Assembly: GCA_021789595.1 (NCBI GenBank)
Contig: JAJYJJ010000005.1
Location: 44,495-108,494 of the forward strand
Direction: 5' to 3'
Source: Nitrospirota bacterium
GTDB lineage: Bacteria; Nitrospirota; Thermodesulfovibrionia; UBA6902; JAJYJJ01
Length of the DNA: 64,000 bases
Below the pieces are notes generated by a model. It was not told the DNA's origin, made no database searches, and saw only the letters and a program-made list of their open reading frames with translations. A program made the position numbers and the translations under genes. Of the stretch, positions 117 to 44,602 are shown piece by piece (the stretch's first letter is position 1; each line of letters starts with the position of its first letter).

Positions 117-2506
117 GTATAATAGAAGCACCTGGCAATCCAGGTATTGAGCCAAAATGGACATCAAGTGCTAAAAGTGCAGTAGGAACAGATATCCGTG
201 ATAAAAGCCATGTATGGTTTACACTGAGTCACGGGATAATCAACGAGATCTATTATCCACGCATCGACCAGGCATGCACAAGGGATATGGGGCTGATTAT
301 AACAGACGGCAGCTCTTTTTTCTCTGAAGAAAAGAGAGATGCCAATCACGAGATAAAATACCTTGTTGACGGAGTCCCTGCATTCAGTCTTATAAACACA
401 TGCAACCTATCCCGATACAGGATATATAAAGAGATAATTACTGATCCTGAAAGGAATACCCTGCTCCAGTGGATTCGTTTTGAACCGCTTAAAGGTGATA
501 TAGGCGATTATCATGTATATGCCTTGTTTGCCCCCCATATATGGAACAGAGGCTATGGGAATAATGCTGTCGTTGATGAATACAAGGGCATTCCAATGCT
601 CTTTGCATACAGGGAGGGTGCTGCACTTGCACTTGCATGTTCAACAGGATTCCTGAAGAGGTCAGTTGGCTTTGTCGGGGTATCAGATGGCTGGCAGGAT
701 ATTTATCAGCACAAGACAATGCAATGGGAATATACATCAGCAAAAGATGGTAATGTAGCCGCTGCCGCTGAGATAGACCATATTAAAAACAATGGAGAAT
801 TTATCCTGTCTCTTGGATTTGGCAGGACAATGGCTGAGGCAGGCAATAATGCAATCGCCTCGCTTTTAAAAGGCTTCAATAGATGCAGGGTAGAATATAT
901 TGAAGGCTGGAGATCCTATCAGGAGAGCCTGCCTTACATAAAAAGAACAACCTTAACAAAAGACATTGATATATACCGCACAAGCATCTCTGTCTTGAAA
1001 ATACACGATGCAAAACATGTCCCGGGGGCAGTAATCGCCTCTTTATCCATACCATGGGGGCAGGCAATGGGGGATGATGATATAGGCGGGTATCATCTGA
1101 TCTGGCCGAGGGATCTTGTAGAAACAGCAGGAGGCCTTCTTGCAGCAGGTGATCACAGGGCTGCAAGAGATATCCTCTTTTATCTTATGACTACCCAGGA
1201 AGCAGATGGACACTGGCCGCAGAATATGTGGATAGATGGTATACCATTCTGGGGCGGTATACAGATGGATGAAACAGCCTTCCCAATACTGCTGGCAGGT
1301 ATGTTGAAACGAGAGGCCGCCCTGGATAAACTTGACCCGTGGAACATGATTGAGAAGGCGGCCAGGTTTATTATCTGTAATGGCCCTGTTACACAACAGG
1401 ATCGATGGGAAGAGGATCCTGGTTATTCGCCATTTACGCTGTCAGTTGAGATATCCGCTCTTGTTGTGGCTGCTGAATTTGCAGAAGAAAAGGGGCAATA
1501 CAATAAGGCCATTTACATGAGAGAAACAGCAGATATGTGGAATGCCTCCATAGAGAGGTGGGCATATGTAACCGATACGGCTATAGCCAGAGAATTAGGG
1601 ATAGACGGCTATTATGTAAGGATTTCACCACCTGAGGTGGCTGATGCAGGCTCACCTATAAATGGCTTTGTCCCTATTAAAAATAGACCGCCTGGAAAGG
1701 ATGTTGAAAGTGCTACACATATTATAAGCACTGATTTCCTTGCACTTGTCAGGTTTGGTTTAAGAACACCTGATAATCCTCGCATCCTGAATACACTAAA
1801 GGCTGTAGATGCTATACTTAAAGTAGAAACACCTTGTGGTACATCATGGCACAGGTATAATGATGATGGCTATGGTGAGCATAACGATGGAGAGCCCTTT
1901 GATGGCACAGGTATAGGTCGGCTCTGGCCCCTTCTCACTGGCGAAAGGGCACACTACGAACTGCAGAGCGGCAATACTGAACAGGCAAAAAAACTGCTTT
2001 CTGACATGGAGAGGTTCAGTAACGAATCTGGATTGATGGCTGAACAGGTCTGGGATTCAGATGATATTAAGGAAAAGGAATTATCCTTTGGTCGTCCTTC
2101 TGGTTCTGCCATGCCTCTTGTATGGGCACACTCAGAGTACATCAAGCTTGTTCGTTCAATACAGGATGGAAAGGTCTTTGATATGCTGCCACAGGTATAC
2201 AGGAGATATGTGCTTGAAAAACATGATTCGAACATCTGGTCATGGAAATTCAATCAGAAATGCAGGGCAATCAAAAAAGGCAATAACCTCAGGATAGAAA
2301 CAATCTCACCTGTAATTGTTCATTGGAGCACTGATGCATGGCAGACAACCCATGATGCTGAATCGAGGGACACAGGATTGGGCACGCATGTTACTGATAT
2401 CGAAACTGAACACCTGCCATCAGGTTCAAACATCCTCTTTACATTTTACTGGATAACAGAAAATCGGTGGGAAGGCAAAGATTACAAGGTTGAAATAAAA
2501 GATTAA
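113..2506 (+). CDS. glucoamylase / glucan 1,4-alpha-glucosidase (GH15 with glucodextranase-like N domain)
   Basis: APG-PG...WTSSAK N-terminus, GGYHLIWPRDLVE, QMDETAFP, QDRWEE, GRLWPLLTGE, SAMPLVWAHSEY. Start placed at ATG 113 (GGAG 8 nt upstream) rather than GTG 104. Confidence 0.92.
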   Translation: MSIIEAPGNPGIEPKWTSSAKSAVGTDIRDKSHVWFTLSHGIINEIYYPRIDQACTRDMGLIITDGSSFFSEEKRDANHEIKYLVDGVPAFSLINTCNLSRYRIYKEIITDPERNTLLQWIRFEPLKGDIGDYHVYALFAPHIWNRGYGNNAVVDEYKGIPMLFAYREGAALALACSTGFLKRSVGFVGVSDGWQDIYQHKTMQWEYTSAKDGNVAAAAEIDHIKNNGEFILSLGFGRTMAEAGNNAIASLLKGFNRCRVEYIEGWRSYQESLPYIKRTTLTKDIDIYRTSISVLKIHDAKHVPGAVIASLSIPWGQAMGDDDIGGYHLIWPRDLVETAGGLLAAGDHRAARDILFYLMTTQEADGHWPQNMWIDGIPFWGGIQMDETAFPILLAGMLKREAALDKLDPWNMIEKAARFIICNGPVTQQDRWEEDPGYSPFTLSVEISALVVAAEFAEEKGQYNKAIYMRETADMWNASIERWAYVTDTAIARELGIDGYYVRISPPEVADAGSPINGFVPIKNRPPGKDVESATHIISTDFLALVRFGLRTPDNPRILNTLKAVDAILKVETPCGTSWHRYNDDGYGEHNDGEPFDGTGIGRLWPLLTGERAHYELQSGNTEQAKKLLSDMERFSNESGLMAEQVWDSDDIKEKELSFGRPSGSAMPLVWAHSEYIKLVRSIQDGKVFDMLPQVYRRYVLEKHDSNIWSWKFNQKCRAIKKGNNLRIETISPVIVHWSTDAWQTTHDAESRDTGLGTHVTDIETEHLPSGSNILFTFYWITENRWEGKDYKVEIKD

Positions 2507-37532: not shown

Positions 37533-37817
37533 ATGCAAGCAAATGAGTTTATTTTTACCGGTATTATCTTTAAAGATGACGAACGATATACATCTCTCTG
37601 TCCTGAACTTGATGTGGCATCAGAAGGTGATACACCTGATGAGGCGTCAAAAAATTTATTAGAAGCTGTTGCACTTTATCTTGAAACAGCAATTGAAGCA
37701 AATCTTCCATATCTTCGCCCTATCCCATCTGATGAAGACCCAAGAATAATAGACCCTGAATCCATCATAAAAACTTTTAATCTAAAGGTAGATTTTCAAA
37801 TAAAGGCTTATGCCTGA
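37533..37817 (+). CDS. hicB: HicB-family antitoxin (short, no DNA-binding domain)
   Basis: YTSLCPELDVASEGDTPDEASKNLLEAVALYLE. Confidence 0.85.
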   Translation: MQANEFIFTGIIFKDDERYTSLCPELDVASEGDTPDEASKNLLEAVALYLETAIEANLPYLRPIPSDEDPRIIDPESIIKTFNLKVDFQIKAYA

Positions 37818-38034: not shown

Positions 38035-38084
38035 GACAATGCCTATGAAGTAAGGCACGGAATCCAGCTCACCTTCTAAATTAA
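38035..38084 (+). repeat. direct repeat copy 2 (degenerate duplicate of the porin 3' end)
   Basis: gacaatgcctatgaagtaaggcacggaatccagctcaccttctaaattaa. Confidence 0.9.
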
Positions 38085-39031
38085 TCCCCTCTTGCCCCCC
38101 TGTGTGAAATAGCCTCTTTATGATCTGATAAAGGCGCATTGAGGGTTATCTCCTCTGCGGTACCATCCTTTTTCTTGATAACATCTGCAACCCTGTCCCA
38201 GTCAACCCTGTCACTGAGCCCGTTTGCCTCAACGATATCCCTCACAATCCTCCGTTGGTCCTGCCCCTTATGATAAAAATCTCTATAGACCTCAAGGAAT
38301 ATCCTTCCATCAGCAGTCCTGGCAACCTTGACTGTCTGGTATATAAGCCTGCCTTCTGTCCCAACAGGTACAATGTCAAAGAGGCTTTTTGCATTGTCTG
38401 GCAAAAGCCTTATACAGCCGTGGCTCCTGAATTGATATATACTGTTTGGCAGTATTGTTGCATGCAGGCCAACACCCTTTATCGAAAGACCTAACCAGTA
38501 TTTTCCAAGGGGGTTGTCAGGCCCGGGCGGCACAATGGTCTTTATATCCTCACCTTTTTTCACCATCTCATCCTGTATAGATATGGGGACAACCCATGTA
38601 GGGTCCTTTATCTTCTTCACAACCTCGAAGGATACGGCTGACGGCGTCTGCCATTCAGGCTTTATCATCCCAAGACCAACAGGATAGTAGGCAATCAATC
38701 TGCCGTTTTCAAAATAATAAAGGCTCCTGTCAGGTATGTTTATCAGAATACCGTTATCAATACCTGATGGGATTATCTTGCTTTTAACAATCCTTAGTTC
38801 CTCACCTTTTCTGAGCCTTGCATCTATCTTGAGATGATTAAGAGCCGCTATCTGCCTCCAGTCAACCCCAAACCTGGCTCCAACAAGCTGAAGCGAATCC
38901 CCTTTTTCGGCTCTGTAGAGAAGGTCCTGCTGGATAACATCCTTATAAAGCATAGTCTGTGAATCTGCAGCCATACATGCATCTACAGACACAGGAAGGA
39001 GAAGAAAAAGCCATATAAGATTCACTCGCAA
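38081..39031 (-). CDS. L,D-transpeptidase with LysM (ErfK/YbiS-like)
   Basis: LysM, INIP, YPVGLG, PPGPDNPLG, GLHAT...SHGCIRL. Start placed at TTG 39031 (AAGGAG 7 nt upstream) because the track's 39103 start runs through a terminator. Confidence 0.88.
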   Translation of the reverse strand: MRVNLIWLFLLLPVSVDACMAADSQTMLYKDVIQQDLLYRAEKGDSLQLVGARFGVDWRQIAALNHLKIDARLRKGEELRIVKSKIIPSGIDNGILINIPDRSLYYFENGRLIAYYPVGLGMIKPEWQTPSAVSFEVVKKIKDPTWVVPISIQDEMVKKGEDIKTIVPPGPDNPLGKYWLGLSIKGVGLHATILPNSIYQFRSHGCIRLLPDNAKSLFDIVPVGTEGRLIYQTVKVARTADGRIFLEVYRDFYHKGQDQRRIVRDIVEANGLSDRVDWDRVADVIKKKDGTAEEITLNAPLSDHKEAISHRGARGD

Positions 39032-39060
39032 GGTAATGCTCCTTAAACAATCAGATATAA

Positions 39061-39093
39061 AAAAAGGCCCCAGGGTTTTCTCCGGGGCCTTTT
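39061..39093 (-). terminator. intrinsic terminator directly after the small Cys-rich ORF
   Basis: Minus strand AAAAGGCCCCGG-AGAAAAC-CCTGGGGCCTTTTTTT. Confidence 0.8.
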
Positions 39094-39096
39094 GCC

Positions 39097-39159
39097 TTAA
39101 CAAGAGCCTTTACATTTACAGGTTGTTGCCGTCCTTTTTGAGAGCTTCTTGATTGTCAT
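39097..39159 (-). CDS. putative RiPP precursor peptide, 20 aa MTIKKLSKRTATTCKCKGSC
   Basis: Hand-translated; SD AAAGGGGGTGA 4 nt before ATG; terminator 3 nt after the stop; 41 nt downstream of the radical SAM/SPASM gene. Confidence 0.78.
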   Translation of the reverse strand: MTIKKLSKRTATTCKCKGSC

Positions 39160-39200
39160 AGGCTCACCCCCTTTCTCAGGGCACAGACCCTTCATGGGCA

Positions 39201-40367
39201 TTATGGTTTTATTATATCATATGCATAACATTTAATCGAATCCCTGCCAAGCGGGTCGCCATCTATATATGCCCTGAACCTGCAGCCACCCCTGCAATCT
39301 GCTTTATGTATACAATCACATTCAAGCTCATCGAGTTTAATCGGCCTTAACCTCTTCCAGCAGACCTCAAGCCCATCCTCTGCCGTACCAAGCGGCATAT
39401 CGCCAAAATAGCCGCATTTTGCCAACCTCCCATCGGCCAGCACAGCCATAAGATGGGCGCCGCAGGCATAGAGGACCGGGTTATCCCCATCCAGCTCATC
39501 AGGGTCGCTATGGAGACTGCTGCCAAAACCATAGCTGAGGTATCTGCCTGCAATATCAGGCGGAGGATTAAACTCGGTATTCTCCCTCAGGTTTCCCTGC
39601 ATACAGAGGGCATCAACACTCCAATCCTTTATCCCGAGTCTCCTGAACATCTCATCCATGGCGTCGAAATCATCGAGGTTCCTGGAATGGATGATTGTGG
39701 CAACCGATACTTCTATCCCCATAGCAAGTGCATCTATGAGGGCAGACATTGCCTTTTTAAAAGAACCTTTCCCCCTCAAGGAATCATGGGCATGCTCCAT
39801 GCCATCAATACTGATCTGTATCTCATTAACCCTGAGTCTTTTTAACGACTCCCTTGTAAGAAGGGTCCCATTGGTCAGAAGGACGCTTCTGAGGGCAAGG
39901 CCCGGGAGCATCTCATTAATCTCCCAGAATCCTGGATGCAGAATGGCCTCTCCACCTGAAATCAGGACCCTGAGCCCCTGCATGGCCTCAAATTCCTTCA
40001 AGACCTGCTTTATCGTATGCAGGGGCAGGTCTATGGCCTTTGCATCGCCGAGATAGCAGTGACTGCATCTGAGGTTGCATCGGTTTGTTATCAATAATTC
40101 AAGGTATCTCAGCGAGGGAGTTGGCGATTGTCTTAAGGGGGCTGTAAGCAGCTCAGGCCTTTCTGAAATGGCAAGGATGCCTTCATTAATGCAGTATTCT
40201 ATGAATTCCTTTTCTCCTTCACGAACATCTGCTTCGCCGCGGGAGCATTGCAAAAGGAATTCAAAGGCAGCATCATCAAGTTTATAAAGCTCATCAGTTC
40301 TTATATCGTAGAGACAGGGCCTTCCCAGGAGTTTCAAGACACATCCATTTCTCAGGGAATATTTCAT
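39201..40367 (-). CDS. radical SAM/SPASM enzyme with RRE(PqqD)-like N-terminus, putative peptide maturase
   Basis: CNLRCSHC, SGGE, TNG, QISIDG, HDSLRG; SPASM region CG...DG----C and CDC-x5-C-RGG-C...C; N-terminal about 65 aa strand/helix pattern resembles an RRE. Confidence 0.88.
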   Translation of the reverse strand: MKYSLRNGCVLKLLGRPCLYDIRTDELYKLDDAAFEFLLQCSRGEADVREGEKEFIEYCINEGILAISERPELLTAPLRQSPTPSLRYLELLITNRCNLRCSHCYLGDAKAIDLPLHTIKQVLKEFEAMQGLRVLISGGEAILHPGFWEINEMLPGLALRSVLLTNGTLLTRESLKRLRVNEIQISIDGMEHAHDSLRGKGSFKKAMSALIDALAMGIEVSVATIIHSRNLDDFDAMDEMFRRLGIKDWSVDALCMQGNLRENTEFNPPPDIAGRYLSYGFGSSLHSDPDELDGDNPVLYACGAHLMAVLADGRLAKCGYFGDMPLGTAEDGLEVCWKRLRPIKLDELECDCIHKADCRGGCRFRAYIDGDPLGRDSIKCYAYDIIKP

Positions 40368-40547: not shown

Positions 40548-40633
40548 TGGCGGAGGGGGTAGGATTCGAACCCACGGGACTTTCGCCCTGCGGTTTTCAA
40601 GACCGCCGCCATCGACCACTCGGCCACCCCTCC
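40548..40633 (-). tRNA. tRNA-Ser (anticodon UGA)
   Basis: GGAGGGG acceptor stem, TGGCCGAGTGG D-arm, CT-TGA-AA loop, long variable arm GGGCGAAAGTCC, GTTCGAATC, encoded CCA. Confidence 0.97.
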
Positions 40634-44159: not shown

Positions 44160-44602
44160 TGGTGATAGGGCTTACCCCTGATTATGGTAAATGCCCTGTA
44201 AAGCTGTTCAAGAAAGAAAAGCCGCGCCATCTCATGGGTCATGGTCATGCGGGAAAGGGAAATGGTCATCCCTGCCTTTCTCTTAACCTCATCCGATACA
44301 CCAAAGGCGCCGCCGAGGACAAAATCCACATCCTCTGCCTCCAGAGACCTTATAAGACCTGCAAACTCCATAGAGGTCTTCTCCTTTCCTGTCTCATCAA
44401 GGAGGATGTAATTGCTATGGCCCCTGAGTATTCTCTCGCCTTCCTTTTCCCTGAGCCTTTGTGCAGATACGAATGCCTTTTCACTGCCAAACTCTATAAT
44501 CTCAAGAGGGACATATGGATGTAAGAGCCTGAGATACTTTTTTATCCCCTCATTTAGATATGGCTCTTTTGTCCTTCCCACCCAGAGTATCCTTATCCTC
44601 AT
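44156..44602 (-). CDS. rlmH: 23S rRNA pseudouridine-1915 N3-methyltransferase
   Basis: LDETGK--TS, FVLGGAFG, SLSRMTMTHEMARL, EQLYRA, PYHH. Confidence 0.96.
   Translation of the reverse strand: MRIRILWVGRTKEPYLNEGIKKYLRLLHPYVPLEIIEFGSEKAFVSAQRLREKEGERILRGHSNYILLDETGKEKTSMEFAGLIRSLEAEDVDFVLGGAFGVSDEVKRKAGMTISLSRMTMTHEMARLFFLEQLYRAFTIIRGKPYHH

Follow-up and report, generated by a model that had tools for sequence, protein, structure and literature searches.

A predicted radical SAM maturase and its candidate 20-residue precursor peptide in Nitrospirota

The pairing of a short Cys-rich precursor peptide with an enzyme that carries a RiPP recognition element (RRE; RiPPs are peptides that are made on the ribosome and modified after translation), a radical S-adenosylmethionine (SAM) core, and a SPASM domain is well known. 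Here we describe what is probably another such pair, from a stretch of 64,000 nucleotides (positions 44,495 to 108,494 of contig JAJYJJ010000005.1, assembly GCA_021789595.1) of the genome of a Nitrospirota bacterium; we refer to the whole stretch as the window. The pair consists of a radical SAM enzyme of 388 amino acids and a peptide of 20 amino acids, whose gene begins exactly 41 nucleotides after the enzyme's stop codon. To our knowledge, a ribosomal precursor of 20 residues would be among the shortest known.

The SCIFF peptides and their maturase CteB (or ScfB; ranthipeptides; TIGR03973 and TIGR03974; structures 5wgg and 5why) are conserved across the Clostridia, and a conserved cellular role is suspected for them. 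Like a SCIFF system, the pair in the window combines a single enzyme that has an RRE, a radical SAM core, and a SPASM-type C-terminus with a short peptide that is rich in Cys and whose basic N-terminus is rich in (I/V)K; it is also conserved across a lineage, with about one copy per genome and no adjoining exporter or protease. However, a SCIFF has about 45 amino acids and six cysteines, whereas our peptide has 20 amino acids and three cysteines; the lineages are Nitrospirota and Thermodesulfobacteriota instead of Clostridia; and here, the genes for the peptide and the enzyme are often unlinked and co-occur with a third gene, for a protein with seven invariant cysteines (the 7-Cys protein). 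An initial annotation of this DNA, made from the letters alone, had likened the peptide to a miniature SCIFF. This is useful as an analogy only, as the SCIFF family models are reached by neither of the two proteins. The peptide matched no NCBIfam family at E ≤ 1, SCIFF included, and the best 25 of the enzyme's 81 NCBIfam matches do not include TIGR03974.

Two other kinds of systems are similar in part. SkfB (6efn), the maturase of the sporulation killing factor, and SuiB (5v1q and 5v1t), the latter of which crosslinks Lys to Trp in streptide, are the best structural matches to our enzyme over the whole chain, including the N-terminal RRE. SkfB has a shorter "twitch" domain, whereas our enzyme carries seven SPASM-type cysteines; also, the substrates are unrelated, and our peptide has no Trp. 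The operons that encode SkfB and SuiB also contain exporter or protease genes. The pyrroloquinoline quinone (PQQ) system (PqqA, PqqE, and PqqD) and the mycofactocin system (MftA, MftB, and MftC) resemble our pair in that the precursor is very short and is recognized, through a PqqD-like RRE, by a radical SAM enzyme with a SPASM-type C-terminus, and in that they are distributed like housekeeping genes. In our enzyme, the RRE is fused to the radical SAM core, and the tailoring genes of those pathways are absent from the neighborhood.

The enzyme and the adjacent peptide gene

We think that the two genes probably form a unit for making a ribosomal, modified peptide, with the 20-residue product as the substrate of the adjacent enzyme. 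Four lines of evidence (domain architecture, adjacency, co-occurrence across genomes, and predicted binding) all suggest that the peptide is a precursor and the enzyme its maturase. The features of the locus are as follows.

39201..40367, minus strand: gene for the radical SAM enzyme (P0001, 388 amino acids), an open reading frame (ORF) with the domain order RRE, radical SAM core, SPASM-type domain
39203-39201, minus strand: stop codon of the enzyme gene (TAA), read from the ORF
40143..40367, minus strand: N-terminal RRE-like (PqqD-like) domain, residues 1-75, predicted from the fold match and the co-fold contacts
40056..40079, minus strand: CxxxCxxC motif (C97, C101, and C104) for the SAM-binding [4Fe-4S] cluster, from the translation; invariant in 53 diverse homologues
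39204..39470, minus strand: SPASM-type C-terminal domain, residues 300-388, from the Cys pattern and structural alignment
39164..39174, minus strand: Shine-Dalgarno (SD) site AAAGGGGGTGA of the small ORF, 4 nucleotides ahead of its ATG
39097..39159, minus strand: gene for the 20-residue precursor-like peptide MTIKKLSKRTATTCKCKGSC (P0002), with ATG at 39159 and the stop codon at 39099-39097; residues 1-12 are the basic leader and T13-C20 are the core
39052..39093, minus strand: intrinsic-terminator-like hairpin and T run at the end of the two-gene unit, with the stem at 39093..39062, followed by TTTATATCTG

The initial annotation had described the 41-nucleotide gap, the ribosome-binding string, the small ORF, and the hairpin, and all of these are accurate to the base. 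The hairpin has 12 pairs, of which 7 are G-C, and starts 3 nucleotides past the peptide's stop codon. As a single match, the terminator is weak evidence because there are 3 such sites in the 3-kb region, as compared to 2.8 in shuffled sequences. Among homologous loci, the 55 nucleotides past the peptide's stop codon fold at -12 kcal/mol or below in 49 of 81 cases (a count without a shuffle control).

The enzyme belongs to the radical SAM superfamily, as it matches Pfam's Radical_SAM (PF04055) with 71.1 bits over residues 92-239 (the cutoff is 29.5 bits). This core was the only domain found in the Pfam scan at E ≤ 1. The cysteines of C97-x3-C101-x2-C104 are invariant across 53 homologues, and every cysteine of the C-terminal array (C302-x10-G313-x4-C318, C350-x-C352-x5-C358-x3-C362, and C380) is invariant or almost so. 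The SPASM motif has seven cysteines in the arrangement CX9-15GX4C, CX2CX5CX3C, C, which the array follows except for CxC in its middle block. The CxxxCxxC motif and the C-terminal Cys array that had been read from the letters are both present (C97/C101/C104 and C302 to C380).

No curated family describes the enzyme: although 81 NCBIfam families were returned, none was near its cutoff, and all of the best ones cover the core alone (ScmE, 91 bits against 400; WgkB, 90 against 650; AhbD, 84 against 500). In particular, the enzyme belongs neither with PqqE (TIGR02109, 50.9 bits against 381) nor with MftC (TIGR03962, 82.2 against 265). Assignment to AhbC, AhbD, or NirJ, which the initial annotation had named as a finding that would undermine a role in peptide modification, can be set aside, as those models reach just 75 to 84 bits against cutoffs of 500 to 650 (TIGR04545, 84.2 against 500; TIGR04546, 74.7 against 650; TIGR04051, 83.2 against 515; all in the core, residues 93-261), and the enzyme carries a predicted RRE.

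We built an AlphaFold2 model of the enzyme from the alignment of 53 homologues, with a mean predicted local distance difference test score (pLDDT) of 94.7 and a predicted template modeling score of 0.93. When compared to solved structures with Foldseek, the model matched SkfB (E = 5e-17), CteB (8e-14), and SuiB (2e-13). In VIA-align, the alignments to SkfB (Z = 26.9, root mean square deviation [rmsd] of 5.0 over 330 residues, model residues 7..373) and SuiB (Z = 26.5, rmsd of 4.2 over 361 residues, model residues 2..386) both take in the enzyme's N-terminal domain. The next matches were CteB (Z = 23.8-23.9), anSME, ChlB, and PqqE, which align from about residue 82 to residues 384-388; at the C-terminal end, the structural alignments to SuiB, anSME, ChlB, and PqqE extend to residues 386-388. 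SkfB is also the top sequence-profile match in the PDB (E = 2e-38), and the enzyme's sequence identity to the solved matches of the SkfB/SuiB type is 15-22%. Judging from this model, the enzyme is a peptide-maturase-like radical SAM protein whose top solved matches with an N-terminal RRE are SkfB, SuiB, and CteB.

The RRE is a winged-helix domain with a three-stranded sheet and helices; a bound leader peptide adds a strand beside strand 3 and helix 3. The predicted order of elements in our enzyme's N-terminal domain is four strands, two helices, and a strand. We folded residues 1-80 alone with 41 homologues (pLDDT of 83) and aligned the result to 48,161 representative chains. The best match was 6jx3_B (Z = 8.7, rmsd of 1.7 over 66 residues), followed by 5v1u (Z = 8.5). 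Two of the 48,161 chains had Z ≥ 8, and both are lasso-peptide (B1) RRE proteins bound to leader peptides. Further matches included the N-terminus of TigE (Z = 8.0), PqqD (5sxy, Z = 7.1), and the RRE regions of MibB, NisB, PbtF, CteB, and SuiB. Taken singly, a Z of 7-9 is a modest match, but the assignment seems sound because the top matches are enriched for RRE domains and because the whole-chain alignments to SkfB and SuiB also take in this domain. Four of its residues (D25, L27, Y28, and D31) are invariant in the 41 homologues. Thus, the earlier suggestion that the N-terminal extension is an RRE is supported by the predicted fold, which is RRE/PqqD-like (Z = 8.7 to 6jx3_B and 7.1 to PqqD), but not by sequence (Pfam's PqqD has no match at E ≤ 1).

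Conservation of the peptide and its coupling to the enzyme

The gene for the 20-residue peptide is real and conserved. Of 40 relatives from the same order, all of which contain paralogous radical SAM matches, just two contain true orthologues of the enzyme (56% and 54% identity), and in both, the enzyme gene is followed by a peptide gene (...MIKKVLKKLLNTCKCKGSC and MIIKKVSRKSATTCKCKSSC). More broadly, of 8,000 candidates scored, 1,579 proteins fall in the enzyme family at E ≤ 1e-30, all of them named merely "radical SAM protein"; at the same threshold, 339 clusters at 50% identity match the enzyme. A relative is encoded in at least 379 species genomes, of which the best 80 are nearly all metagenome-assembled genomes of Nitrospirota or Thermodesulfovibrionales, and three are labeled as Thermodesulfobacteriota or Desulfovibrionales. 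To these 80 loci we added the window and its two same-order orthologues. In 59 of the 83 loci, a peptide ORF lies 40-250 nucleotides past the enzyme's stop codon on the same strand, so the conserved small ORF that the initial annotation expected beside homologous enzymes was indeed found; of the 24 loci without an adjacent peptide, 6 have less than 150 nucleotides of downstream DNA and 18 have 290 or more.

The pooled loci gave 77 peptides, 69 of them distinct, with the consensus M[TK]I[KR]K[VI][ST][KR][KR]x[AS]xTCKCK[SGNA]SC. M1, I3, C14, K15, C16, S19, and C20 are invariant, and K5, T13, and K17 are nearly so. The collected peptides are all of 20 residues because of how they were collected; forms of 19 residues, one N-terminal residue short, also exist (loci L002, L127, and L128). 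Variants with UGA (selenocysteine), which had been raised as a possibility, were not seen in the peptides. In one genus (loci L133 and L134; genomes G159 and G182), the core is CKCHSSC, with His in place of Lys17, and the leader is otherwise typical (MTIKKITKKKALT).

Could the small ORF be a chance open frame, never translated, in the spacer ahead of the terminator? It has just 20 codons, and exact look-ups of six such peptides in a collection of 15 billion proteins found none of them, although the collection may hold no products so short. (Their absence also fits the earlier guess that gene callers miss this ORF, with the same reservation about short products.) The six sequencing runs listed as containing the stretch are all of DNA, none of RNA, and the best of them may come from the source sample. 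However, both the length and the sequence are kept while synonymous sites drift. Across 57 distinct ORF DNAs, the average pairwise differences at codon positions 1, 2, and 3 are 0.17, 0.19, and 0.54, and the seven core codons show 4,879 synonymous and 698 nonsynonymous codon differences. TGT and TGC, and AAA and AAG, are all used across the peptide genes, which end in TAA (38), TGA (11), or TAG (10). An SD-like motif lies within 20 nucleotides upstream of 80 of the 81 peptide genes. Given also the gene's distribution across genomes and its persistence as a stand-alone gene in different contexts, both described below, we consider a chance frame to be extremely improbable.

We then compared the distribution of the two genes across 301 genomes drawn evenly from the class, using E ≤ 1e-60 for the enzyme and a degenerate DNA pattern (CKCKx[S/T/C]C-stop) for the peptide. 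The enzyme is present in 178 genomes and the peptide pattern, usually as a single match, in 176; the reversed pattern, as a control, had no matches in any row shown. Both genes are present in 170 genomes and neither is present in 117, with the enzyme alone in 8 and the peptide alone in 6. Both genes are missing throughout two families (of 50 and 7 genomes). In patchy families, the same genomes hold both: 5 of 9, 6 of 16, and 2 of 10 genomes in families f12, f15, and f16. Of the eight enzyme-only genomes, five belong to one genus. A looser pattern, applied to three of these five, matched two genomes, each of which encodes MTIKKITKKKALTCKCHSSC; the two had been scored as enzyme-only because the original pattern excludes that variant.

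Some matches to the pattern are spurious. CKCKCCC and CKCKSCC matches in L106 and L109 have no start codon, SD site, or leader and lie inside the region of a longer ORF. Matches of this type in genomes G113, G226, G239, and G268 are identical DNA strings, and we take them to be spurious as well. The count of 176 therefore includes one genome (G268) that has such a match alone, and one peptide-only genome rests on a spurious match.

In many genomes, the two genes are unlinked. Five genomes without an adjacent peptide were searched in full, and in four of them the peptide gene was found elsewhere, each time with a leader and an SD site. We also considered whether the enzymes without an adjacent peptide might be a separate paralogue, but a quick tree scatters them among the peptide-bearing ones, with at least 8 to 12 changes, and we rejected this idea. 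Although the genomes are related, the repeated joint presence and absence, along with the persistence of stand-alone peptide genes in at least three contexts, suggest that the two genes are a functional pair.

The contexts of the stand-alone genes vary. In one genome family, the peptide gene follows a gene for an HD-domain (HD_5) protein (L105, L107, L108, L110, L114, and L116); in five of these six loci, a gene for a small cytochrome c whose domain is of the SoxA/TsdA type comes after it, and in three, so does one for a membrane protein (DUF6529) that ends in a cytochrome c. The peptide gene of other families lies ahead of a long ORF and a gene resembling IspE (both identified by eye).

Predicted binding and candidate chemistry

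We co-folded the enzyme with the peptide, giving each its own alignment (53 rows and 33 rows). This was a check that the initial annotation had called for, and the result was favorable: the interface score (ipSAE) was 0.82 (0.81-0.83 in three runs), as compared to 0.01 for the best control. Of 80 solved complexes, 58 pass the mark that we used, as do 2 of 110 mismatched pairs. At least 46% of contacts are shared between the runs, and the partner's pLDDT is at least 57. The contacts with the lowest predicted error are between peptide residues 1-6 and enzyme residues 26-34, 55, 58, 59, and 64, which belong to strand 26-29 and both helices of the N-terminal domain; overall, the RRE residues that touch peptide residues 1-6 are 19, 25-34, 37, and 52-64. 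Ile3 is predicted to contact residues 19, 28, 30, 34, 55, 58, 59, and 64, which fits with its invariance. Beyond the leader, the peptide (up to residue 17) contacts residues 90, 135, 223, 250-252, 282-289, C302, C318, and 358-364. These models support binding of the peptide at the RRE.

If so, the basic N-terminal half of the peptide (M-x-I-K-K-V-S-K-K) would add a beta strand to the RRE by pairing with its strand 26-29 and would pack against helix 50-61, with the invariant Ile3 in a hydrophobic pocket. The invariant core (T-C-K-C-K-x-S-C) would then be delivered into the radical SAM barrel, beside the auxiliary clusters of the SPASM domain. Within the barrel, the 5'-deoxyadenosyl radical would abstract a hydrogen, and one or more Cys sulfurs would be linked to a neighboring residue by a thioether. 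The thioether is our best guess: we favor it because SkfB and CteB, the closest solved enzymes with Cys-rich substrates, make thioethers; because the peptide has three invariant cysteines; and because the core region has X-x-x-C spacings (A/S11-C14, T13-C16, and K17-C20). Linkage of a Cys sulfur to an alpha carbon gives a sactipeptide, and linkage to a beta or gamma carbon gives a ranthipeptide, so these classes are set by the chemistry of the product. NxxcB-type enzymes reportedly form beta-thioethers at NxxC motifs, and the T13-C16 and K17-C20 spacings are of this X-x-x-C kind; the likeness is a lead only, and the peptide's core contains no Asn. The invariant Lys15 and Ser19, as well as Lys17 (His in one genus), could equally be the sites of other radical chemistry.

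Several observations weigh against our interpretation or against parts of it. First, sequence models do not recognize two of the three domains: neither Pfam's PqqD (PF05402) nor its SPASM (PF13186) matches the enzyme at E ≤ 1, and the middle block of the SPASM array has CxC where CxxC is canonical. Second, the calibration of the co-fold contained no partner of less than 30 residues, the alignments given to it were our own, and because complexes of CteB with CteA and of SuiB with SuiA have been solved, the favorable score may partly be memory. Third, 18 of the 83 loci have at least 290 nucleotides of downstream DNA and no adjoining peptide, and one of the five genomes searched in full has no match to the peptide pattern anywhere. 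Fourth, because the genomes are related, the co-occurrence counts overstate their independence. Finally, the data fit a thioether equally with a carbon-carbon crosslink on Lys, epimerization, or chemistry at the C-terminal Cys. The binding mode is a prediction from models, whereas we infer the chemistry, what becomes of the leader, and the product's location and role.

In another reading, the peptide is the sacrificial precursor of a small-molecule redox cofactor, as PqqA is for PQQ and MftA is for mycofactocin. The enzyme would crosslink or decarboxylate the C-terminal residues, and unlinked housekeeping peptidases would release the product. The mycofactocin enzyme acts at the C-terminus of its precursor, which is reminiscent of the invariant C-terminal Cys of our peptide. 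A cofactor would also suit a 20-residue, single-copy precursor that is nearly invariant across the class, genes that are often unlinked, and the co-occurrence of the 7-Cys protein, as well as the lack of an adjoining exporter or protease, both in the window and among the 25 largest neighbor families of the 80 loci. However, the PQQ and mycofactocin tailoring genes are absent from the conserved neighborhood, the scores for PqqE (51 against 381) and MftC (82 against 265) are low, and all 20 residues of the peptide are conserved, not the tail alone, although this is also expected of a leader. We consider a cofactor precursor to be unlikely.

The 7-Cys protein, other neighbors, and biological meaning

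A protein of about 110 amino acids is encoded divergently upstream of the enzyme gene, within 500 nucleotides, in 31 of the 80 loci, and anywhere in the locus in 35 of 80 (for example, L025 3612-3956, minus strand). Its invariant cysteines, numbered as in the window's genome, are C16, C20, C32, C73, C76, C83, and C94, and C94 is followed by GG. It matches no Pfam or NCBIfam family, and an atlas look-up gave "hypothetical protein" clusters alone, from Nitrospirota and Thermodesulfobacteriota. In the window's genome, its gene is on another contig (G000:C19:5604-5939; L111 1480-1851), flanked by RtcA-like and endonuclease-III-like ORFs (identified by eye). Among the 301 genomes of the class, 180 encode the 7-Cys protein, including 168 of the 178 enzyme-positive genomes but just 12 of the 123 enzyme-negative genomes; all three genes are found together in 160 genomes, and 107 have none of the three. 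This distribution suggests that the 7-Cys protein is probably a third partner of the system. As a guess, it might donate electrons as a dedicated Fe-S protein, or it might be the product's receptor.

A few forms of the 7-Cys protein differ in length or in domain content. In-frame TGA or TAG matches were considered as possible selenocysteine, an idea that we rejected after fetching 13 of them; the 11 that could be fully read are natural stops with a shorter C-terminus, about 12 residues past the CGG motif, and the other two yielded an N-terminal piece alone. The domain also occurs at the C-terminus of a 475-residue ORF that begins with a response-regulator-like receiver (L071 2376-3803, minus strand, and L076), and it is joined to a cupin-like C-terminal part of about 115 residues in L080 (3266-3955, minus strand) and L099 (3258-3959, minus strand); both arrangements are putative fusions that may instead come from assembly errors. 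The cupin-like part is a separate neighboring ORF in L038 and L052.

The 7-Cys protein, instead of the peptide, might be what the enzyme acts on. The peptide would then be a stable small subunit or regulator, for instance one whose cysteines are ligands to an auxiliary cluster. The co-fold does set the Cys core against the SPASM cysteines, and the 7-Cys gene's co-occurrence with the enzyme and its divergent adjacency would fit with such a target. However, an RRE fold with a leader-like binding mode serves for substrate recognition in solved maturases, and no 7-Cys protein was found in 10 genomes that encode the peptide along with the enzyme. We know of no such peptide subunit of a radical SAM enzyme, and we think that this reading is quite improbable.

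In the window itself, a tRNA-Ser(tga) gene lies directly upstream of the enzyme gene (40548-40633, minus strand), and the downstream neighbor encodes a protein with LysM and a YkuD L,D-transpeptidase-like domain (38081-39040, minus strand). With these as its neighbors, the pair adjoins no protease or exporter in the window, as the initial annotation had said. Stretches resembling the same tRNA are upstream of the enzyme orthologue in G003 (L002, about 1373-1456), so this part of the local gene arrangement is conserved in the order. By eye, the wider window has housekeeping-like genes (PdxA-, RlmH-, RsfS-, NadD-, ScpA-, and MutS-like ORFs), and a 94-residue ORF at 37533-37817 (plus strand) resembles a HicB-type antitoxin.

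Across the 80 loci, the recurrent neighbors include rubrerythrins (33 and 26 loci), superoxide-dismutase-like proteins (19 loci), and flavodiiron-like proteins (11 loci; these last two were identified by eye). They hint at redox metabolism or oxygen stress, but related genomes may also simply have inherited them together. A second radical SAM/SPASM gene, for a protein of about 330 amino acids with a Pfam SPASM match and no RRE, is 1-2.3 kb downstream in 19 of the 80 loci (for example, L033 6312-7295, plus strand); in L003, it directly follows the peptide gene (235-1305, minus strand). Its product does not reach the cutoff of any family model. The window's genome has no orthologue of it (the best match has E = 3.9e-7 and 22% identity), and we do not count it as a core part of the system.

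None of the 25 largest neighbor families of the 80 loci is an exporter, a leader protease, or an immunity protein. This bears on whether the pair makes a secreted antimicrobial or signaling peptide, such as a bacteriocin-like or quorum-sensing RiPP. The peptide is strongly cationic, and most of the characterized peptides that are modified by an RRE-containing radical SAM enzyme (subtilosin, sporulation killing factor, and streptide) are exported. However, no such genes adjoin the pair in the window or recur across the loci, the peptide gene is single copy and is often alone, far from the enzyme gene, and its core is invariant across 69 distinct sequences. Antimicrobial precursors usually diversify. 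A secreted peptide is therefore very unlikely. Instead, a modified product of the enzyme most likely stays cell-associated and has a conserved physiological role, not that of an antibiotic; we favor such a role because exporter, protease, and immunity neighbors are lacking and because of the single copy, the invariant core, and the frequent unlinking.

The enzyme family, its 20-residue precursor, and the 7-Cys companion are apparently undescribed. No curated model in Pfam or NCBIfam names any of the three, and literature searches (for the motif, radical SAM RiPPs, SCIFF and ranthipeptides, Nitrospirota, and Thermodesulfovibrio) turned up nothing on this family. A term search of PMC10288494 found no mention of Nitrospir-, Thermodesulfovibrio, shortest, 20 residues, orphan, or unknown function; its supplementary lists of about 15,000 enzymes could contain the family. 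As the precursor has 20 residues and is missed by gene callers, surveys based on genome mining would list the enzyme as an orphan.

Overall, our results add a widespread and apparently unnamed family of a precursor and its probable maturase, along with a second unnamed Cys-rich protein that co-occurs with them. About 58% of the 301 genomes from the class carry the system, and the enzyme is encoded in at least 379 species genomes. Since the substrate is a 20-mer and the 388-residue enzyme is well modeled, the chemistry is directly testable in a heterologous host. A broader proposal, which we put forward tentatively and with considerable doubt, is that the peptide, the enzyme, and the 7-Cys protein make up a housekeeping system of three parts that is lineage-wide in anaerobic Nitrospirota and also serves some Thermodesulfobacteriota. 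The peptide would be tailored into an intracellular thiol- or metal-active microprotein or cofactor that would act, with an Fe-S-type partner, in redox or oxidative-stress metabolism, and not as an antibiotic. The single copy, the invariant core, and the frequent unlinking of the genes set this family apart from bacteriocin-type clusters and make it akin to the unexplained SCIFF peptides of Clostridia.

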